From a virus (Duplodnaviria > Heunggongvirae > Uroviricota > Caudoviricetes), in IMG/VR virus record IMGVR_UViG_2718217897_000002: DNA of 11,367 nucleotides. The stretch is one strand, 5' to 3'. Numbering within the stretch: the first letter of the stretch is position 1; every line of letters starts with the position of its first letter. The notes below the pieces were generated by a model, which saw nothing but the letters and a program-made list of their open reading frames with translations, made no database searches and had not been told where the DNA came from. Below are positions 1 to 11,367 of the stretch, one piece after another. Both the position numbers and the translations under genes were made by a program.

Positions 1-192
1 TTAGTTGCTACGCGATTCGGCTATACGTTGATCGATCCAGTCATCGATCTCGCTTTCAATAAAAGCTATTGCGCGAGAACCAATCTTGACTGATTGGGGG
101 AATTGTCCTCGGCTCATCAGAGCATATACCCACGCCTTGCTATAGCCAGTGCGTTTCAAAACGTCAGATAGCCGAATCAGCGACTTTTTCAT
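1..192 (-). CDS. alpA: AlpA-family HTH regulator of prophages/integrative islands (excisionase-like), 63 aa
   Basis: Complete ORF (ATG at 192, TAA at 3-1). Small basic protein with the AlpA pattern (LIRLSDVLKRTGYSKAWVYALMSRGQFP...IAFIESEIDDWI). Lies beside an integrase fragment, as in P4/CP4-57-type islands. Family assigned from recalled homology. Confidence 0.75.
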   Translation of the reverse strand: MKKSLIRLSDVLKRTGYSKAWVYALMSRGQFPQSVKIGSRAIAFIESEIDDWIDQRIAESRSN

Positions 193-293
193 ATCTACCT
201 CGTAATACGTTGCTTGACTATGTGAGATAGTAAATCATTGTTTTTTTAAGTTTTCTGTGAATTTGGAGAAAAAGTTTTCGGGAAAGGAATTGT

Positions 294-335
294 CCCAAAT
301 TGGGCGTTTGTTTTCGTCTCTCCAGCCAATTTGGG
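294..335. promoter_or_regulatory. Pair of near-palindromic boxes CCCAAATTGGG (294-304) and CCAATTTGGG (326-335) upstream of alpA; candidate operator
   Basis: Seen directly: the two boxes are reverse complements of each other, each nearly self-palindromic, about 21 bp apart, in the 156-bp gap between the orf246 stop and the alpA start. Confidence 0.25.
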
Positions 336-348
336 AACATCAATTATT

Positions 349-1089
349 TTACTTGGTTATCTTTCCCAAAAAATTGGGTGCGTGCCGCTGCAAAGTCTTT
401 TTTAGAAGCGTTCTTAGATTATCCATGGTCATGCCAGCATCATTGTATTCTTCACTGTACTTTGCGATGTTGTTTGCTGCTTTCTCGCACACCGCGGACT
501 GGTTGAGCTTTCCATTCTTTCTAACGTCCTCGCTGGATTCATATAAAGCAATCGCCAGCCCAGCAATCATTTTCCAGGCGGTGTTTTTGCCGCGCCAGTC
601 ACTGGGGAGCGACCCACTTTCTGTTTCCTCTGCTATCGGTTCATCAATGTTGTGATCTTCCAGTTCTGGGAAGAAGCTCACAAGCTCGGACCGCTTGAAA
701 TAAAACGAATCGTAAGACCCATACCAATCATCCTCATCATCGTGATATAAAAAGTCTTCTCCTTTCCTAACGTTGAAAGTCCCTTCTTCCCCCGGTATCG
801 GGCTCTCCCTGTATTCATGCCCCATAGCCAGAAGACCTAAAAACTCCACACACTGCTTTTCAAAGTCTTCATTAGTCGTAAAACCAGATACCCAATCGAA
901 CTGATAAAAGCCCAGCCCCCCTAAAGTATCTGGTTTAGTCTTGCTCAATCTGTAGTTACTTAAGATAGCGGCAGCTATCATTCTTTCATTTTCATTGTTT
1001 AGTCTTGCCAGTTCGCTGATCAGATTACCAAACCAGATTTTATCTTCTGACTCGTTATAAAACGCATCTAGTCCTGTCATCTTAGTCAC
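349..1089 (-). CDS. Hypothetical acidic protein, 246 aa, between the integrase fragment and alpA
   Basis: Long ORF with GTG start at 1089 preceded by SD GGAAGGAGA (6-nt spacer). Overlaps the integrase-fragment stop by 8 bp. No motif I recognise; Asp/Glu-rich central region. Confidence 0.6.
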   Translation of the reverse strand: MTKMTGLDAFYNESEDKIWFGNLISELARLNNENERMIAAAILSNYRLSKTKPDTLGGLGFYQFDWVSGFTTNEDFEKQCVEFLGLLAMGHEYRESPIPGEEGTFNVRKGEDFLYHDDEDDWYGSYDSFYFKRSELVSFFPELEDHNIDEPIAEETESGSLPSDWRGKNTAWKMIAGLAIALYESSEDVRKNGKLNQSAVCEKAANNIAKYSEEYNDAGMTMDNLRTLLKKTLQRHAPNFLGKITK

Positions 1090-1813
1090 GGCGTGTTCTC
1101 CTTCCGAACTCGTAAGGGCTTATGTGTATTTCTCGATTGGCGTCCAGATAATCTGCCCACCATTGAAGCATTAGTTTGCGCTCTTCTAAGTAATCAGCCT
1201 TGTGCTTGTAGGCTCTTTTAACGTCTTTATATTCTTTGTGGCTCATCTGGCGCTCTACTGCGTCCTCCTGCCACAAACCGGACTCCATCAGGGAACTACA
1301 GGCTGTGGCACGGAATCCATGTCCAGTTACGTCCTCTTGCGTGTTATAGCCCATTAAGCGTAATGCCTTGTTTACCGTGTTTTCACTCATCACGCCTTTG
1401 GTGTTTCTTTCATTCGGAAACACAACATCGTAGCTTCCGCTTAGTTCTCTCAACTGCTTTACAATAGAAACAGCCTGACGGCTAAGAAGCACGATATGTT
1501 CGTCTTTTCCCGTCTTTGTGCCACGGGTGGAAAACCTCACACCATCGATAGGCTCTCTTTTTTTAGGGATAATCCACTCAGCCCGATCAAGGTCAAACTC
1601 TTTCCAACGGGCAAACCTTAACTCGCTTGAACGAACAAAGGTCAACATGGTTAGCTCAATGGCAAGGCGGGTAAGAGGATTACCTTTAAAGCTGCCCAAT
1701 CGAGTGAAAAAGTCTGGTAAATCTCTGGGATGTAGTGCGGCATGATGCTTAGTTTCATATTGCATTAGCCGATATTCCTCAGAGCTTGGAAGAATTGCTG
1801 ATGCATATGGCAC
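1082..1813 (-). pseudogene. 5'-truncated P4-type tyrosine integrase (C-terminal catalytic domain only, 243 codons)
   Basis: Translation aligns with the C-terminal half of P4-family integrases (HGFRATACS...KRAYKHKADYLEERKLMLQWWADYLD, parallel to the IntS C-terminus at 6680-7837). The frame is closed by a stop only 8 codons upstream of the first possible start (1838-1840), and no N-terminal arm/core-binding domain is encoded upstream in any frame. Confidence 0.7.
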
Positions 1814-1829
1814 TCTTGCAAGAGCAGCT

Positions 1830-2270
1830 GTGAAACCTCAGCAGTATATTGAAAGAACAGGGAGAACTGCCAATGTACTACGCGATCTTGATGCTGGTTT
1901 ATCCAACGTTACATCAACAGTGTTAAATGCAATTGCCAACTCAACATCAGGTGCCATTGTTGGTGGAGCAGGAGGCGGGGGCGTTGCTGGCGCTGCCGCA
2001 GGTGCTTTAATTGGCGCCGGGTTAAAAGGCGCTGTATCTAAAATTGCCACCACACGTAGTGGTCGGTATGCGATAGAGAAAGCAGTTCAGGAAGCAACTA
2101 AAGCAGTAAGAGCAGGCGGAAGCAAAGAAGCATTAGTGGCGGCTGAACGCAGATTTATGGCAAATAAAGCTGCCGTAAAAGCAATACGTGATACAGTCGG
2201 AAACGAAGAGTTCAATCGCTTAGCGAGGGCTGGCATTGTAGCGTCGCTAAGCGGAATAGCACAGGAGTAA
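1830..2270 (+). CDS. Gly/Ala-rich glycine-zipper protein (146 aa); possibly the 3' remnant of a larger gene
   Basis: ORF with GTG start at the deletion junction. Central segment AIVGGAGGGGVAGAAAGALIGAGLKGAV is a glycine-zipper-like hydrophobic stretch flanked by Ala/Lys/Arg-rich helices. More GC-rich than the neighbouring cassette. Minus-strand ORFs here are Pro/Ala-rich antisense artefacts. Function unknown. Confidence 0.4.
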   Translation: MKPQQYIERTGRTANVLRDLDAGLSNVTSTVLNAIANSTSGAIVGGAGGGGVAGAAAGALIGAGLKGAVSKIATTRSGRYAIEKAVQEATKAVRAGGSKEALVAAERRFMANKAAVKAIRDTVGNEEFNRLARAGIVASLSGIAQE

Positions 2271-2594
2271 TTAATCATCCATGGATGGATTGAGCTTATC
2301 TCGTGTTGATGTGGCGATTTGTCCTACATTTCTAAGCCAAGATTTCAAATCCTTGATATTGTCATTGATTTCATGAATATCTTCTTTTTTTAATCTGTTA
2401 ACATTATTTTCAATAATTTCAATGGATTGCTCAATATCAGATATAGTGAATGATAGTTTGTTCTTCTCATCTTTTATTGAGTTTTTAAGTGCTTCGTTCT
2501 CAGTCTTGAGGTCAGATATCTTTTGTTTTAAAGATGCCAGTTGGTACTGAACCACAATGAGTGCGATAGCTATCACGATAACTGTTGTATACAC
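2271..2594 (-). CDS. N-terminally membrane-anchored coiled-coil protein (about 107 aa)
   Basis: GTG at 2594 is preceded on the minus strand by a strong SD AAGGAGG (plus 2602-2608) with a 5-nt spacer. Product begins with a hydrophobic helix (YTTVIVIAIALIVVQY) followed by a heptad-like Lys/Glu/Asn-rich region. The longer ORF reaching 2810 would overlap the divergent gene and has no SD, so the short start is preferred. Confidence 0.5.
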   Translation of the reverse strand: MYTTVIVIAIALIVVQYQLASLKQKISDLKTENEALKNSIKDEKNKLSFTISDIEQSIEIIENNVNRLKKEDIHEINDNIKDLKSWLRNVGQIATSTRDKLNPSMDD

Positions 2595-2624
2595 ACCAAC
2601 CTCCTTAGTTTTGCGCAGGATACC

Positions 2625-2990
2625 ATGAAAAAAGTTAACATTGGAAACGTACCAAAGATGCTCGTTCCGCTCTTTGAGAGCGGTACAATTGTGTTTTGTA
2701 GAGACTTTCCAGAATGGCAACGCCTGCATCAAAAACTTGGCGTTGACGTGCATGACTCGGACGCCAACGGAGCGTCTCATACAATGAGTAGCGAGAATGG
2801 TGTTTTGCATGTGATAGGCGTGTTCAATGGCAAACTATCTACTATTGCCCATGAGTGCGCTCACATGGCATTCGATATCTGCTCAAGGGTAGGTGTTGAT
2901 GTTGAACCAGGAAGAGCCAACGAGACTTACTGCTACTTAATGAGCAGGCTTGTTGAGTTCTGCGAGCGACATATCAAAAAGCCGGAGTGA
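2625..2990 (+). CDS. Small HExxH-motif protein, possible minimal Zn-metallopeptidase (ImmA/IrrE-like motif), about 121 aa
   Basis: ATG at 2625 with AGGA at 2617-2620. Motif STIAHECAHMAFD (HECAH encoded at 2850-2864) with Glu 19 and 25 residues downstream. The ORF-track start at 2541 would overlap the divergent gene. Stop lies inside a hairpin (2979-2998). Fold and activity unverified. Confidence 0.5.
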   Translation: MKKVNIGNVPKMLVPLFESGTIVFCRDFPEWQRLHQKLGVDVHDSDANGASHTMSSENGVLHVIGVFNGKLSTIAHECAHMAFDICSRVGVDVEPGRANETYCYLMSRLVEFCERHIKKPE

Positions 2991-2998
2991 CCCGGCTT
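2979..2998. terminator. Hairpin between the convergent HExxH gene and the small basic protein gene; candidate bidirectional terminator
   Basis: Stem AAGCCGG (2979-2985) / CCGGCTT (2992-2998), 6-nt loop. On the minus strand it is followed at once by a T-run (plus 2971-2978 is an A-run); on the plus strand it is followed by T-rich GATTATTACTTTTT. Confidence 0.4.
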
Positions 2999-3003
2999 GA
3001 TTA

Positions 3004-3183
3004 TTACTTTTTGCTGTCTGGAGTTCGCTTATCTAATACCCAGCCATGACCTGGCTTTGTTGTTGGTGGAAGCCTTTCGTTGTCCTTGACGGTGGCAAAA
3101 TTGTCTTTCTTACCGCCGCGTGGGCCAACTTCTTGGTATATTCCGCCGTTTTTTCCTGTGTTTTCACCTGGTTTTTTCGCCAT
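3004..3183 (-). CDS. Small basic Gly/Lys/Pro-rich hydrophilic protein (about 59 aa)
   Basis: ATG at 3183 preceded by SD GAGGT (6-nt spacer). Product MAKKPGENTGKNGGIYQEVGPRGGKKDNFATVKDNERLPPTTKPGHGWVLDKRTPDSKK, no hydrophobic segment. It loosely recalls small uncharacterised YjzC-like proteins, but I cannot verify that. The overlapping plus ORF 3046-3240 is judged antisense. Confidence 0.5.
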   Translation of the reverse strand: MAKKPGENTGKNGGIYQEVGPRGGKKDNFATVKDNERLPPTTKPGHGWVLDKRTPDSKK

Positions 3184-3275
3184 GATATACCTCAACATAC
3201 ACCCGTTATTGGGCGATTAAATATTGATCTCATTTTATAAGTAGTCAATATGGCCCAGGTAAATGCAAAAATTAA

Positions 3276-3297
3276 CCCACCGTCAGGTGGTTTTTTT
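3276..3297 (+). terminator. Rho-independent terminator-like hairpin (CCACC-GTCA-GGTGG followed by T7)
   Basis: 5-bp GC-rich stem 3277-3281 / 3286-3290, tetraloop, seven T at 3291-3297. An A-run precedes it, so it could work in both directions. Confidence 0.5.
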
Positions 3298-3348
3298 GTA
3301 CAAATCCTTCAGCCAGTACATAACTACTGACAGATAACCAACGCAACG

Positions 3349-3372
3349 ATCCAGCTTCGGCTGGGTTTTTTT
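3349..3372 (+). terminator. Rho-independent terminator (stem with TTCG tetraloop followed by T7)
   Basis: Stem ATCCAGC (3349-3355) / GCTGGGT (3360-3366), TTCG loop, then T-run 3366-3372. Confidence 0.55.
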
Positions 3373-3561
3373 ATGCCCAAAATTCACCGTAGCCATGCTG
3401 CGGAGATTCCTTGTATCTGGAGCAAATTAAATGACAGATATTATAAATGGGAATTGTTATTTAATAATGTTTGAAAATAAAAATCATGGACGATAGGAAT
3501 AAAGGTATTACTTGTTTTTATTTTTGTAAGTGACGCATTAAGCGCATAAATAATATGCCTG

Positions 3562-3590
3562 TTGATCAAGATTCTTGAGTATTGTAAAAT
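3562..3590 (+). promoter_or_regulatory. Candidate sigma70 promoter for the tailspike operon
   Basis: TTGATC (3562-3567), 17-bp spacer, TAAAAT (3585-3590), in an AT-rich leader about 125 bp upstream of the tailspike start. Confidence 0.4.
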
Positions 3591-3714
3591 AATCGTTTTG
3601 TTCATGTTGCATGGTTTTTAAATGAATAGAAGGTTATTTTTCAAAACAATTGCATCTTTGTCTGCAGTCATTCCGTTTTCTTCAATATCTAAATCTTCAA
3701 ACAGGATGACTAAT

Positions 3715-6300
3715 ATGCCTGATATAACCCCAAATGTTGTGATAGGTATGCCATCGCAACTCTTCACAATGGCTAGCTCTTTTAAAACCGTAGCAAATGG
3801 AAAAATTTATATCGGTAAGATTGACACAGATCCGGTAAATCCAGAAAACCAGATTCCAGTATATCTGGAACGAGAAGATGGTACTTATGTTCAGGTGCCA
3901 CAGCCAATCGTTATCAATGCTGCTGGATACCCGGTATACAACGGACAGATTTCCAAATTCGTTACCGTGCAAGGCCATTCTATGGCTGTTTACGATGCAT
4001 ATGGTACGCAGCAGTTCTATTTTCCGAATGTGCTTAAGTACGATCCTGATCAATTAAGACAACAATTAGAAGACCCGGAAGGTGCTAAAAAATATCATGA
4101 ATTGCAGATGTCTCGGTGGCGTGATGACGCTGACCCTCGCGGATGGGGAGCAAAAGGTGATGGCATCACCGATGACACATTATCTTTTCAAGAGTTAGAA
4201 AAACAAATCACAGGAAGGATTGTTGATCTAAGGGGTAATACATATATAACAGATCAAGTTTATGATGGAAATAAGTATATAAATGGCTATTTTCGCACAG
4301 AGAATCGATTACTGCCAGATGCTGATTTTACTGAAAAAAGAATACAAACTATAAAAAAGGGGATGTATACAGGTTTCAGATCTTCTACTCCTAATCATGT
4401 TAAGTCAGGGTTGCGACTGGCAACAATTAAAAATACTGTCATACAAGGTGCTGTTCTTGATTATTATGACAGTGTTCTTTATTGCTTGGTAAATGTGAGT
4501 GGCAGCGTTAGTTCTGGTGATGAAGTTAATAAAGTTGTTGCTTATAATTGGTTTGGGAATGAAGAGTTAACTCCTCTTTGGGAGACTAAAGGTAGTAGAG
4601 AATTAGGACATCAATGTCTTGGTTTAACCATAGGGCGCGTTGGTTTTCGTAACACAAGAGGCCAGTTACAGATATGGGGGTTAGCTGGCACAACTAAAGG
4701 AGAGGATCGCGCAAAGTATATCACCAGATTCACCCCTACTGATGGTGGTGAAATTGAACCAGAGTTTTTTCTCATATGGGAAGATGGTTACGAGAATCAG
4801 GTAAATGTTTTATGCACCGACCCTATGAGTCGATGGCTGATTACTACAGCAAAACGTTATGTTGGCCCAGGTGAGAGCCCATCAACACCAGATCAAATTC
4901 GCTATTATGTAAAAGTATTTGATACCAGTAAATTTATTAACCCGCAGGCGTACAATTACGATTATCGTAATGAAGCAACTTTTGAATTTGAAATTGCTGA
5001 TTTTGTGAGGGATATGCAAACAGTTGCGTGTGACGGTACTGCTATTTATTTTTGTCAGGCTGGATCTGCATATTCTTCAACCAGAAAATATTTGCATCAG
5101 TACACACTTGATGGTGTTTATCTTGGGGTGCAGCAAATACAGGCAGGTGCAGGAAGAGCCTATGAAATAGCAGATCCAAATGATACCGGAACGCCAGATG
5201 TTAGCAATCTTACATATGAACCAGAAGCAATGTTTTTCCGTATGATTGCAGGTGGGTATGACCTTGTAATGGGGAATACAAATGGCATACCAGATGGTGA
5301 TAGTGGGCGAGAAACTACATTTTACACATTAATGCCACAACAGGTAATGCATGTAAAAACAACATCAAGAAATCAGCCTGGTATTATCATTGATTCAACC
5401 CATGATATTGTCACTAACTCTGGTTTGTTAAGCCTTGGTAAAATTATGCCTGGTGGTGAAGTCATAGAGCAGGCAAACCTTGATGACAAAGGATTCACTG
5501 TTTCGAGGGCAACAACACAAGCCGCCCGTTATGATGCAAAGAATACGTTACGGAATGTAACTTTTCATGTTAGTGAAAAAGGTGATACCGGTATTTATGA
5601 CTTTACCAATGCTCAATGGATATTTAAATCTCCCTTATCAACATCTTCATATTCGTATATCGGTCAGTCAGCGGAGGTTAATGGCTATATAAGTGCTAAT
5701 AAAGATAATACGTCATCATGTGGGACATCATCTAAACGGTGGACGCAAGTATATGCAACTAATGGGGCAATAAATACTTCAGACCAGACATTGAAAACAA
5801 AGCCACTGACAGTAGAGCAACTTTCAGAAATCATGGAGGTGGATCAGGATGCAATTCTTGACGCATGGGGTGACGTAAATATTATCGTTTACCAGTGGTT
5901 GTCCGATATTAAGGCTAAAGGTTCGGATACTGCTCGTTGGCATTTCGGAGCAATTGCACAGCAGGTAAGAGATGCGTTTCTTGCAAAGGGGATAGATGGA
6001 ACAAGATTTGGCTTGCTATGTCATGATAAATGGGATGATGAGTACCAACCTGTAATGGCACAGCGCAAGGTGTCATTTATAGCTAAATCCCCTGAAGGAG
6101 AAGACATCGTTCACGAATACTTTGAAGAATACGATACTGGTGACACGGAACTGGTTGTACATGCTGGTGAGCGTTGGGGATTGCGTCCAGATGAATGTTT
6201 GTGGTTGGAGGCTGCATTCCAGCGAAGAAGGTGTGAACGTATTGAATCTCGTTTAACAGAGCTTGAATTGATAATTAAAAAAGCAAAAGAGATAGAGTAG
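3715..6300 (+). CDS. Phage tailspike protein: P22/Sf6-type N-terminal head-binding domain, central beta-helix (pectate-lyase-like) receptor-binding/depolymerase domain, C-terminal intramolecular chaperone (peptidase S74-like) domain
   Basis: N-terminus [18 protein letters not shown]...[27 protein letters not shown]...[15 protein letters not shown]...NVLKYDPDQ closely matches the P22/Sf6 tailspike particle-binding domain as I recall it. [13 protein letters not shown] (4141-4179) is the usual start of a right-handed beta-helix. C-terminal SDQTLK...[12 protein letters not shown] resembles the auto-cleaving chaperone domain of endosialidase and T5 L-shaped fibres. Start chosen at the ATG with AGGA 8 nt upstream; the ORF stays open back to 3622, with 3706 as an alternative start. 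Confidence 0.9.
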
Positions 6301-6588
6301 ATGGATAAAACCCCAATTCATCACGCACTTTGCGCTGTGGTCGCACAGGTACTGGTTGGTCTTTTTACCGGAAACTGGGCTTACGGAGCGATAGCCGGTT
6401 GTACATTCTTCATCGCTCGTGAACATACCCAGGCAGAATATCGCTGGATTGAAATGTTCGGACATGGCAAGCGAATGAATATGCCGTGGTGGGGCGGTTT
6501 TGATCCGCGCGCTTGGGATGTGGCAAGCCTGATGGATTTTTCTTTCCCAATTATCGGATGCTTATTGGTATGGATTCTTGCATCGTAG
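6301..6588 (+). CDS. Small integral membrane protein (95 aa), co-transcribed with the tailspike gene; unknown function
   Basis: ATG at 6301 directly follows the tailspike TAG (6298-6300). Hydrophobic N-terminal segment (ALCAVVAQVLVGLFTGNWAYGAIAGCTFFIA) and C-terminal segment (FPIIGCLLVWILAS) with a Trp-rich loop between. Sits where P22-like phages carry O-antigen modification genes. Confidence 0.55.
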   Translation: MDKTPIHHALCAVVAQVLVGLFTGNWAYGAIAGCTFFIAREHTQAEYRWIEMFGHGKRMNMPWWGGFDPRAWDVASLMDFSFPIIGCLLVWILAS

Positions 6589-6622
6589 TTAACACAGAGT
6601 TACCTATGAGACAAAACTAAGG

Positions 6623-6659
6623 TACACAAAGCTTTGCACTGGATTGCAAGGCTTTGTGT
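6623..6659. terminator. Long imperfect hairpin (about 15 bp stem) between the convergent membrane-protein and integrase genes; candidate bidirectional terminator
   Basis: ACACAAAGC-T-TTGCA / 6-nt loop CTGGAT / TGCAA-G-GCTTTGTGT (6624-6659). On the minus strand it is followed by TTAGTTTTG. No clean T-run on the plus strand. Confidence 0.3.
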
Positions 6660-6679
6660 CATTCGATAGTTAAGGTGGA

Positions 6680-7837
6680 TCACTCCACCTTTTCATCAAG
6701 CCAATCCGCCCACCACTGCATCATTTCTCTGCGCTTATCGAGATACTGAGCGTGGTTGTAAATTCCACGCACAGAACCGCCGTTGGCATGTGCCAGTTGC
6801 ACTTCAATAGCATCAGCAGGCCATTCGTGCTCGTTCATAATCGTGCTGAATTCATGCCTGAATCCGTGACCGCTTTCCAGACCTTCATAGCCGATTTGTT
6901 TGATCACAAGCAATACCGCGTTCTCGCAGATTGGCTTCTTCTTATCGTTGCGCCCGGAAAAAACAAACTCTGATACTGGTTTAGTGATTGAGCTTAGTGT
7001 AGTGAGAAGTTCAACCACCTGGTCTGACATCGGGACAACATGAATTTTGCGTCCCTTCATCACACTGGCGTCGATGGTGATAATCCTGTTTTCAAAATCG
7101 ACGTTCTTCCATAGCATGGAACGAAGCTCTTTTGTTCTTAGGGCTGTGTAGCGTAAAATTTTGGTAGCAATGAGCGATACGATACTTCCTGAAAATGTTG
7201 CAAGTGCTTTGTTGAATGCCGGGATCTGGTCGGCAGGTAAAAATGGGAAGTTCTTCTTGCGGTATCCCTTCATGGCGTCAGCAAGGTCAGGTGCCGGGTT
7301 ATATTTAGCCCTTCCGGTGACAATAGCGTAACGGAAAACCTCGCCGCATCTTCTGCGGGCTTTGTTGGCTCGCTCCATTGCACCGCGATCTTCAAATCTG
7401 CGGATTACTTCCAGAAGTTGCATCGGCTCAATATCCTGAATTTCAAGGGCGCCGATGATAGGTAAAATGTCGTCATCAAACATTTTGGCAAGTTCATTTG
7501 CATAGCCTACTGACCAGACTTGCTTCTTGTGCTCGTACCATTCCTTGTAAATCGCACAAAAGGAATTGTTGTTAGACGAAGCCTTTTTCGCCTTTACCGG
7601 ATCGATGCCAACCGAGATGTCTTTCCTCGCAGTCCATGCTTTATCCCTTGCCTCCTGCAAAGTCATAAGCGGATATTTTCCGACGGTCAGGATTTTCTCC
7701 TTACCGTCAATCTTGTAGCGAAGCTGCCAGACCTTTTTTCCGGATACAGGGACATAAAGGTACAGGCCATTACCATCGAGAAGGCGGTATGGTTTTTCTT
7801 TCGGCTTTGCTGCTTCAATCTGCTTAACGGTGAGCAT
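6680..7837 (-). CDS. intS: P4-type tyrosine integrase, IntS-like (385 aa)
   Basis: Translation from the internal ATG (MLTVKQIEAAKPKEKPYRLLDGNGLYLYVPVSGKK...) through ...HAQYLDKRREMMQWWADWLDEKVE matches prophage integrase IntS as I recall it. Gene starts 161 bp downstream of the argW 3' end in the same orientation, the classic tRNA-int arrangement. The ORF track extends 12 codons further to a GTG at 7873. Confidence 0.9.
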   Translation of the reverse strand: MLTVKQIEAAKPKEKPYRLLDGNGLYLYVPVSGKKVWQLRYKIDGKEKILTVGKYPLMTLQEARDKAWTARKDISVGIDPVKAKKASSNNNSFCAIYKEWYEHKKQVWSVGYANELAKMFDDDILPIIGALEIQDIEPMQLLEVIRRFEDRGAMERANKARRRCGEVFRYAIVTGRAKYNPAPDLADAMKGYRKKNFPFLPADQIPAFNKALATFSGSIVSLIATKILRYTALRTKELRSMLWKNVDFENRIITIDASVMKGRKIHVVPMSDQVVELLTTLSSITKPVSEFVFSGRNDKKKPICENAVLLVIKQIGYEGLESGHGFRHEFSTIMNEHEWPADAIEVQLAHANGGSVRGIYNHAQYLDKRREMMQWWADWLDEKVE

Positions 7838-7998
7838 GGGTAAAAATCCGGTGGGTAAAATTATTTTATCCACTTTTTACCCGTCATGGTGTGCGGCTGT
7901 CAACGATCTGACGCGAACCATGCCGAACTGTGAATCTAAGGAAGGCTTGATATTCAAGGGATTTTGCGGACTGGTACGGATGGGAGCGAACTGATAAA

Positions 7999-8073
7999 TG
8001 GTGTCCCCTGCAGGAATCGAACCTGCAATTAGCCCTTAGGAGGGGCTCGTTATATCCATTTAACTAAGAGGAC
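7999..8073 (-). tRNA. argW: tRNA-Arg (anticodon CCU)
   Basis: Minus-strand 75-nt sequence GTCCTCTTAGTTAAATGGATATAACGAGCCCCTCCTAAGGGCTAATTGCAGGTTCGATTCCTGCAGGGGACACCA folds as a cloverleaf: 7-bp acceptor stem, D stem GTTA/TAAC, anticodon stem AGCCC/GGGCT with loop CTCCTAA (anticodon CCT), T stem GCAGG/CCTGC with loop TTCGATT, encoded CCA. Confidence 0.9.
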
Positions 8074-10669: not shown

Positions 10670-10945
10670 GTGGCTTCTGTTTCTATCAGCTGTCCCTCCT
10701 GTTCAGCTACTGACGGGGTGGTGCGTAACGGCAAAAGCACCGCCGGACATCAGCGCTATCTCTGCTCTCACTGCCGTAAAACATGGCAACTGCAGTTCAC
10801 TTACACCGCTTCTCAACCCGGTACGCACCAGAAAATCATTGATATGGCCATGAATGGCGTTGGATGCCGGGCAACTGCCCGCATTATGGGCGTTGGCCTC
10901 AACACGATTTTACGTCACTTAAAAAACTCAGGCCGCAGTCGGTAA
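10670..10945 (+). CDS. insA: IS1 InsA (transposition repressor / N-terminal part of the InsAB' transposase), 91 aa
   Basis: GTG start. Product contains the zinc-finger CPSC...CSHC and matches IS1 InsA. Confidence 0.9.
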
Positions 10946-11367
10946 CCTCGCGCATACAGCCGGGCAGTGACGTCATCGTCTGCGCGGAAATGGACGAACA
11001 GTGGGGCTATGTCGGGGCTAAATCGCGCCAGCGCTGGCTGTTTTACGCGTATGACAGGCTCCGGAAGACGGTTGTTGCGCACGTATTCGGTGAACGCACT
11101 ATGGCGACGCTGGGGCGTCTTATGAGCCTGCTGTCACCCTTTGACGTGGTGATATGGATGACGGATGGCTGGCCGCTGTATGAATCCCGCCTGAAGGGAA
11201 AGCTGCACGTAATCAGCAAGCGATATACGCAGCGAATTGAGCGGCATAACCTGAATCTGAGGCAGCACCTGGCACGGCTGGGACGGAAGTCGCTGTCGTT
11301 CTCAAAATCGGTGGAGCTGCATGACAAAGTCATCGGGCATTATCTGAACATAAAACACTATCAATAA
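10864..11367 (+). CDS. insB: IS1 InsB reading frame (catalytic part of the InsAB' transposase made by -1 frameshifting), 167 aa
   Basis: Product matches IS1 InsB. Frame is -1 relative to insA and overlaps its 3' end. The stop codon is the last three bases of the window. Confidence 0.9.
10921..10927 (+). other. IS1 programmed -1 ribosomal frameshift motif (A6C)
   Basis: AAAAAAC lies in the insA/insB overlap, where IS1 is known to shift frame to make InsAB'. Confidence 0.6.

Follow-up and report, generated by a model that had tools for sequence, protein, structure and literature searches.

A two-module protein family between the integrase and alpA genes of enterobacterial phage satellites, and a phased repeat array leading to the alpA promoter

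Introduction

The 11,367-nucleotide (nt) viral record IMGVR_UViG_2718217897_000002 (Duplodnaviria; Heunggongvirae; Uroviricota; Caudoviricetes), the whole of which is here called the window, carries part of a satellite-type island in which an anonymous gene, here named X, lies between a P4-type integrase gene (int) and alpA. The question raised by this locus is whether X is interchangeable cargo, such as an anti-phage gene, as had been proposed in an earlier note made from the sequence alone, or whether it belongs to the control region of the island. The analysis presented here shows that X is not an orphan cargo gene but a member of a previously undescribed two-module protein family, which is tied to the int/alpA control region of phage satellites. 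The X-alpA spacers of this family contain an array of short repeats that runs into the alpA promoter, which is the basis for a tentative regulatory proposal that is weighed below against other explanations.

Architecture and relatives of X

The 246-aa gene that the earlier note placed between the integrase fragment and alpA is real. In the open reading frame (ORF) listing it is a minus-strand ORF at 349..1089, with a GTG start at 1089 and a stop codon at 351-349, and its translation includes both of the Asp/Glu-rich stretches quoted in that note, YHDDEDDWYGSYDSFYF and EDHNIDEPIAEETESG. A Shine-Dalgarno sequence, GGAAGGAG, was found 8 nt 5' of the GTG, and an identical coding sequence is present in RefSeq as a hypothetical protein (WP_001461314.1). 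The upstream GTG is supported as the start because the Erwinia and Klebsiella homologues begin MDRVTG... and lack the internal Met-4. As the note had also observed, the start of X overlaps the stop of the integrase ORF (1082..1813), which is itself truncated; the overlap measures 8 nt (GTGACTAA) and is retained in the related islands of Citrobacter, E. albertii, Klebsiella and Erwinia. Since X is translationally coupled to the integrase, co-transcription of int and X is plausible.

The description of X as acidic was borne out for the protein as a whole (pI 4.72, net charge -16) but not for its C-terminal third. Residues 1-145 have a pI of 4.35 and residues 146-164 a net charge of -6, whereas residues 165-246 have a pI of 9.67 and a net charge of +6. 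Most members of the family likewise have C-terminal domains with pI values of 8-9.7, in contrast to the strongly acidic N-terminal module. The N-terminal module of X is predicted to contain a winged-helix-like core (residues 17-90) and a beta subdomain bearing a DDEDD loop. The parts of the gene are as follows:

349..1089, minus strand: gene X, two-domain protein of 246 aa, 99% identical to cluster P0001
655..1089, minus strand: N-terminal module (N-module), residues 1-145, acidic, mixed alpha/beta, ending in the junction motif FYFKRSELVSFFPEL
598..654, minus strand: linker, residues 146-164, acidic (net charge -6) and disordered (pLDDT below 50 at residues 152-160)
352..597, minus strand: C-terminal domain (C-domain), residues 165-246, basic, predicted helical bundle, no Pfam family

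No motif could be placed in X by the earlier note, and this was confirmed by searches of Pfam, PADLOC, PHROGs, NCBIfam and PDB sequences, none of which gave a match. No family of the PADLOC-DB 2.0 defence hidden Markov models matched X at E<=1, and nine of ten other X-family proteins were without a PADLOC match at E<=0.01, the exception being at chance level (E 0.0038). X had no Pfam match at E<=0.1 to Phage_AlpA, HTH_17 or Xis-type domains. A set of 20 C-domains gave nothing against Pfam at E<=5, as did a profile search of the PDB with the C-domain; a fold search of BFVD also returned nothing, and no convincing fold match for X was obtained. In an Rfam search, a tRNA alone was found.

Whole-length relatives of X are rare: among 5.8 billion proteins, no more than 11 clusters resemble it throughout. 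When 1.84 billion representatives were searched exhaustively with profiles, 42 clusters with X domains were identified, and all of the matches among them whose source or context was checked belong to Enterobacterales. The N-module is shared by about eight of the 42 clusters, and about 30 share with X just the last ~85 residues, corresponding to the C-domain; no Pfam or PADLOC family was assigned to any of them. The C-domain is fused to at least eight mutually unrelated N-modules and is also found free-standing, in ORFs of 78-141 aa; its family motif is W..F.GKDTALMLIAGLAIALEKSGGKY.RGGKLNKSAVA.AA..AIN.YG.G..VT..AL..LL..AL..HA.K. One further candidate, P0028 (879 aa, with seven matching 'stretches'), is a repetitive protein whose match was judged spurious.

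In several otherwise unrelated N-modules the acidic linker is preceded by a junction motif, (Y/F)GF(K/R)(K/R)xE(I/L)xxxFPEL, which in X corresponds to residues 128-149 (window 643-708); the recombination breakpoint of the E. coli alleles, described below, falls at the end of this motif. The modules may also be encoded apart. In one phage-inducible chromosomal island (PICI; locus L011, 7278-8405) the slot holds a 237-aa and a 134-aa ORF separated by 9 nt, with the C-domain in the second, and in locus L064 a frameshifted N-module is followed by an 86-aa C-domain ORF. These arrangements indicate that the N-module and the C-domain can exist as separate polypeptides.

Genomic context of the family

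Two pattern scans that were blind to neighbouring genes recovered 58 C-domain loci from IMG/VR and 41 from JGI/ENA metagenomes; with ~15 loci fetched otherwise, ~110 were available. Wherever the contig has room, the C-domain ORF is followed by alpA at a distance of no more than 500 nt and preceded by a P4-type int on the same strand. Among the metagenome loci with room on the contig this was the case for alpA in 39/39 and for int in 34/34. In every locus of both scans int, X and alpA read in one direction, and no C-domain was found outside an int-alpA interval in the 58 IMG/VR and 41 metagenome loci. Relatives of X were seen neither in phage and plasmid collections, which were searched with tblastn, nor in defence islands. 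Many of the C-domain loci are classical Gram-negative PICIs inserted at thrW or proA, with Ash, DUF4222, a D5-type primase and a TerS-like gene. In these classical PICIs X lies 69-147 nt away from int and is uncoupled from it.

The island family inserted at argW, to which the window belongs, keeps the order int, X, alpA, small ORFs, Rep (REP_ORF2-G2P) and, further on, a resolvase; islands of Citrobacter, E. albertii, Klebsiella and Erwinia have this order too and occupy the identical site in the chromosome. Because the int-X-alpA order is kept at the same site across these related islands, X is a backbone gene of the argW family. The variable cargo slot of these islands is elsewhere, either between Rep and the resolvase or immediately past the latter. 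The intact ~8-kb island of E. coli strain AST19 (NZ_AP043612; X at 2546498-2547238), for example, reads int (428 aa), X, alpA, three small ORFs, Rep, an HNH endonuclease, a small ORF and the resolvase, followed by dsdC. Occupants of the slot include a 470-aa unknown protein between Rep and the resolvase, and the following:

L071, 14130-15988: AriA and AriB (PARIS), between Rep and resolvase
L008, 15825-17786: patatin-type effector, beyond the resolvase, Klebsiella island
L004, 15008-17996: pentapeptide and NYN protein pair, beyond the resolvase, Erwinia island
L001, 10985-12172: HNH endonuclease, AST19 island

The earlier reading of the int-alpA interval as a site of variable cargo therefore holds in part. 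The interval is replaceable among Gram-negative PICIs, as can be seen in the characterised PICI EcCIMP1 (PMC11773190), whose int and alpA are homologous to those of X-bearing PICIs while the 466 bp filling the interval are unrelated; in the argW islands, in contrast, X is fixed and syntenic. The suggestion that X is an anti-phage gene was not upheld. The position homologous to that of X in related islands was inspected for known defence genes and none was found there: it is occupied by X, and the known defence cargo is in the distal slot. Since the C-domain is confined to the int-alpA interval and is coupled to the array at the alpA promoter, this strict context fits a part of the int/alpA control module and not an autonomous defence gene.

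Repeats between X and alpA

In every X-alpA spacer examined, a motif of ~9 bp recurs 4-9 times on the coding strand; the copies, here called boxes, extend from the last X codons to the alpA promoter. The motif differs by type: it is (C/T)TTC(C/T)AAA in PICIs, TTCCCAAAT or CCCAAWTT in the type of the window, and TTACCAAAC in two other E. coli alleles. Box statistics were calculated for nine divergent spacers with the motif YTTCYA, using shuffled sequences and random placement as controls. There were 48 boxes on the coding strand and 5 on the opposite strand, against 3.7+-1.9 expected from shuffles, and the density of 22.9 per kb compares with 1.23 per kb in the loci overall. The spacings between boxes cluster at 20-24, 30-33, 43, 53-54 and 65 nt. 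At a period of 10.5 the mean cosine was 0.75, against -0.01+-0.11 for random placement, and 0/5000 placements reached 0.75; the boxes are therefore on one face of the helix.

The ends of the array are also conserved in position. In most of the spacers examined (types L025, L030, L044, L045, L011, L069, L071, L073 and L017) a first box is found inside the X ORF, 10-27 nt before the stop codon. In most PICI types the last box (YTTCCACA), as calculated from box positions, begins 70 nt upstream of the alpA ATG, at the -35 region or overlapping it.

In the window the boxes start at 378, 335, 304, 282 and 268, with spacings of 43/31/22/14 nt, and those separating boxes 1-4 (43, 31 and 22 nt) are near multiples of 10.5. 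Three of the boxes are short palindromes of the form CCCAA-N-TTGGG. The sequence CCCAAWTT has four matches in the entire 11.4-kb window, all of them at 294-378. The array and its downstream gene comprise:

365..378, minus strand: box 1, CCCAATTTTTTGGG, half-sites CCCAA/TTGGG, within the last X codons
326..336, minus strand: box 2, TCCCAAATTGG, forming an inverted pair with box 3 (11 nt, 100% complementary)
294..304, minus strand: box 3, CCCAATTTGGG, palindromic
274..282, minus strand: box 4, CCCGAAAAC, degenerate
260..268, minus strand: box 5, CTCCAAATT, degenerate, abutting or overlapping a -35-like hexamer
234..261, minus strand: alpA promoter-like site TTCACA-16-AATGAT, from a consensus scan only, abutting the last box
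232-227, minus strand: alternative alpA -10, TACTAT, from reading of the sequence
1..192, minus strand: alpA, 63 aa, downstream of X (PF05930, E 3.7e-18), with the boxes running into its promoter

Other identities for the array were considered and rejected. Integrase arm sites would not be expected ~2.2 kb from the attachment (att) site, and boxes are absent from EcCIMP1 in spite of its closely related int. Replication iterons do not fit, as the replication genes lie far downstream and the origins of PICIs are reported to be downstream of pri. The strand bias would permit an array that acts as RNA, but the 10.5-nt phasing points to action on DNA.

Co-variation of the boxes with the C-domain

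Natural comparisons between elements bear on which protein the boxes belong to. EcCIMP1, which lacks X, has no TTCCA in the 427-nt spacer between int and alpA, although its AlpA is 80% identical to that of the box-bearing locus L044, with an identical recognition-helix segment, and its int DNA is 84% identical to that of L045. Conversely, the AlpA of L011 is only 24-33% identical to the others, yet both the C-domain and the boxes are present. In L074 (6001-7119) a window-type N-module is joined to an unrelated C-terminus, between int and alpA, and the spacer has no such boxes; it contains instead three to four phased copies of a ~21-bp palindromic unit, ATTACCCTCAACCCTGAGGGTAA, with spacings of 32/33/50. 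The combination of a different C-terminus with a different phased repeat suggests that the L074 C-terminus is a second, non-homologous DNA-recognition module in the same role. Taken together, EcCIMP1, L011 and L074 point to boxes that follow the C-domain and not the alleles of AlpA or Int, as far as can be judged from sequence comparison.

The EcCIMP1 spacer (L070, 18858-19284) has, on reading of the sequence, short direct repeats of its own, such as GTTCTTTAA and CTTTTATAAA, each present twice. The ORF EcCIMP1_002, which occupies the same slot and is mis-annotated 'UvrB', was considered as a C-domain remnant and rejected, as an hmmsearch of all frames of the spacer found nothing.

A finer comparison is provided by the argW islands of E. 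coli, in which int, X codons 1-138 and alpA are 97-100% identical. Between these conserved parts, a sharply bounded block of ~430 bp, comprising the C-domain and the boxes, varies and has at least four alleles in the species. In the window it corresponds to:

245..680 (approximate), minus strand: hypervariable cassette delimited by sliding identity, from X codon ~138 to the end of the gene and on into the X-alpA spacer for ~100 nt, boxes included

Among the E. coli alleles, residues 1-138 of X are 95-98% identical and residues 139 to the end 23-55%. The type of box tracks the subtype of the C-domain: CCCAAWTT occurs with the window and P0002 types, and TTACCAAAC with the P0004 and P0006 types. 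AlpA is 97% identical between the window and L071, while their box types differ. The joint exchange of C-domain and boxes is, at the sequence level, the pattern of an immunity-type cassette.

Possible role of X

The direct observations are the domain architecture of X, its int-X-alpA context, the oriented and phased arrangement of the boxes, the way they co-vary with the C-domain and the exchange of the two as a cassette. We propose, with somewhat less than an even chance of being right, that X is a modular, sequence-specific DNA-binding regulator of the satellite alpA switch. X would be made constitutively together with Int, as the conserved 8-nt overlap suggests, and its basic, helical C-terminal domain would bind the one-faced array of short boxes. 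In the window, this putative target would be the five boxes at 378-260 on the minus strand, of which the first is inside the end of the X ORF and the last at the alpA -35 region. Several bound copies of X could jointly set whether AlpA is made, through control of the alpA promoter; AlpA is taken here as the master activator and excision factor of Gram-negative PICI-type satellites. The acidic N-module would serve as an exchangeable input domain, and the signal it senses would presumably come from a helper phage or the host. Control by X could be of either sign, since a repressor and an activator would both fit. A broader version of this proposal would cast the X family as the control element so far missing from a large class of Gram-negative satellites of the PICI type. 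The N-modules would sense the helper phage, the C-domains would read a phased operator array at the alpA promoter that differs from allele to allele, and the C-domain/box cassettes would act as 'immunity types' keeping co-resident satellites independently regulated; this version is clearly less probable and is regarded as doubtful.

Several points weigh against a regulatory role. No fold or profile search result marks the C-domain as a DNA binder. EcCICFT073 and EcCIMP1 are helper-induced without any X, and because PICIs without X stay helper-inducible, X cannot be a universal switch and would be at most one solution among several. All box types share a CCAAA core, which weakens the specificity argument, and C-domain and boxes could co-vary in part because they are physically linked within a single recombination tract. 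Finally, AlpA acts as an activator of its own promoter and excisionase-type proteins typically bind phased direct repeats, so that AlpA stays a candidate binder of the boxes.

This last point leads to the alternative that the boxes are autoregulation sites of AlpA or of a host factor, that X has an unrelated function and that their co-occurrence results from inheritance as one block. The excisionase-family proteins lambda Xis, P2 Cox and 186 Apl all bind phased direct repeats, and the common CCAAA core is such that a single AlpA could tolerate all of the box variants. The natural comparisons run the other way: EcCIMP1 has the recognition-helix sequence of the L044 AlpA but no boxes, a very different AlpA in L011 goes with the same boxes, the repeats of L074 changed together with the X C-terminus, and the E. 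coli alleles switch boxes over a nearly constant AlpA. Boxes as AlpA sites are thus disfavoured, and this explanation as a whole is considered very unlikely. Somewhat better placed, though still unlikely, is a role for X as an excision or integration cofactor acting with Int and AlpA through protein contacts, the boxes being architectural or the sites of another protein. The model for this is the 'integrase overlapping gene' (IOLG) of Vibrio satellites, whose deletion (delta-iolg) leaves PICMI115 unable to excise and transfer upon helper induction, a defect that is complemented in trans (PMC10803314). X shares the position of IOLG and its kind of overlap with int (8 nt in X; 1, 4 or 13 nt in IOLG), an overlap that is conserved across the related islands, and IOLG families are likewise diverse and unannotated. 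Judging from the coordinates, however, the boxes are ~2.2 kb from the tRNA-side att and would be too far away for an intasome arm; X of classical PICIs is uncoupled from int, from which it is separated by 69-147 nt, and PICIs without X excise normally.

The defence reading, restated more broadly, would make X an accessory anti-phage or host-benefit gene in the 5' accessory slot of PICIs, with the N-modules as sensors or effectors and the C-domain as a common effector or anchor. PICIs were reported by the Penades group to carry immune systems at their 5' or 3' ends (PMC11364771), and the 5' accessory immune region (Fillol-Salom et al. 2022, as cited there) occupies the int-alpA interval, as X does, the interval being replaceable between related elements. 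The high diversity of the N-modules, a constitutive co-expression with int that would suit a defence gene, and the allelic diversification of the C-domain, which could reflect an arms race, would agree with such a role. Nevertheless, PADLOC finds no credible defence model in X or in the ten other family members, and no relatives were seen in phages or plasmids or outside the int-X-alpA context, unlike Tai, which is mobile between phages, P4 elements and PICIs. X is moreover part of the backbone in the argW islands, where recognisable defence genes have another slot, and the phased, promoter-proximal boxes, which always accompany X and co-vary with its C-domain, would be left unexplained. A defence function is accordingly rated as improbable, to the same degree as the cofactor role.

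If X is indeed a regulator of alpA, Gram-negative satellites would gain a counterpart of the Stl logic of Staphylococcus aureus pathogenicity islands (SaPIs), and the presence of X in ~4% of complete E. coli genomes, in several cassette alleles, would be explained. If this reading fails, the box array still needs explaining. In either case an anonymous ORF has become a testable candidate: a protein domain and an array of DNA sites are defined, alleles exchanged in nature allow specificity to be predicted, and natural elements lacking either the domain or the array can serve as controls.

Comparison with known systems

The closest described counterpart of X by position is IOLG, which is found between int and alpA in the Vibrio PICMIs (phage-inducible chromosomal minimalist islands), is unannotated and is needed for excision and transfer in PICMI115 (PMC10803314). 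IOLG and X are both small, are on the same strand as int and alpA, and begin within an overlap with the int stop. IOLG comprises 13 unrelated families in PICMIs and is constitutively expressed with int. The likeness drawn here is one of position and description, and accounts of IOLG mention neither a common C-domain nor an array of boxes, unlike the case of X. By analogy, X is probably best described as an enterobacterial IOLG-type gene with a nameable domain, a candidate DNA target and natural specificity variants.

A functional model that the proposed role would resemble is that of Stl/Rpr, the master repressors of Gram-positive PICIs (SaPIs). These are encoded beside int, like X, and are modular, with a conserved DNA-binding part and a highly variable part that in SaPIs binds different helper-phage proteins; X is likewise a two-part protein. 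Stl/Rpr sit at the switch that starts the satellite cycle, and X is proposed to act at the alpA switch. The counterpart of their cognate operators would be the phased boxes that reach the alpA -35 region and co-vary with the C-domain, which are thus candidate operators. There are clear differences: no sequence or fold relationship exists between the two, the candidate DNA-binding part of X is C-terminal, and X reads in the same direction as alpA, while Stl is transcribed away from its repressed genes. Gram-negative PICIs have been described as lacking an Stl/Rpr-like repressor (PMC6092414), and how helper phages activate alpA and whether a master regulator of Gram-negative PICIs exists are stated as open questions (PMC6092414; PMC10803314).

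The cassette exchange recalls the imm regions of lambdoid phages. In those regions, a repressor and its cognate operators are swapped as one block. Similarly, island backbones that are otherwise identical exchange the candidate recognition part of X jointly with its neighbouring sites, but the lambdoid exchange involves the whole regulator and that of the islands only the C-terminal half of gene X. With P2 Cox and 186 Apl the likeness is in the sites, as multiple short repeats are on one helical face and overlap a promoter; X is unrelated in fold to lambda CI and to Cox/Apl.

The island of the window and its surroundings

X was found in 225 of 5426 complete E. coli genomes (~4%), and 44 of the 225 carry the allele of the window. 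The surroundings of X in the window identify the insertion site and show that this copy of the island is damaged. A tRNA-Arg(CCT) at 7999-8073, followed by yfdC and mlaA, marks the locus as argW of E. coli. The stretch that separates argW from the truncated island integrase (window 1772-7873) is the remnant of a P22-like prophage of the HK620/Kapi1/Louie type, which also holds immI-region ORFs and a 95-aa ORF of PHROG-1443. The features of this part are:

1082..1813, minus strand: P4-type tyrosine integrase, truncated, with homology only at 1082-1771 and a Pfam match to the catalytic domain alone
1830-2270: gene-16 DNA-transfer protein, 3' fragment, P22-like prophage remnant
3622-6300: tailspike with P22 head-binding domain and S74 chaperone domain, P22-like prophage remnant
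6680-7873: IntS-like integrase, P22-like prophage remnant

Because the homology to intact islands ends at window 1771, ~199 N-terminal codons of the integrase are missing. A deletion ending at 1771/1772 removed these codons together with the rest of the prophage and the hybrid att site, and the resulting junction was found in none of the 5426 complete E. coli genomes. The island of the window is crippled, with a truncated integrase and without its tRNA-proximal att; as its own integrase cannot excise it, X may survive here as a relic that is still intact.

The argW island recurs at the end of prophage contigs of 40-55 kb (IMG/VR L012-L024, e.g. L014, 4641-5831), often with an opposite-strand integrase just upstream. 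From this recurrence, tandem arrays of prophage and island at argW seem common, and P22-like argW phages seem candidate helpers. Kapi1, of this P22-like argW type, is a proven helper of another PICI (PMC11773190). At the other end of the window, beyond mlaA, an IS1 element with InsA/InsB frames (10670-11367) runs off the right end, and the same insertion is annotated in AST19.

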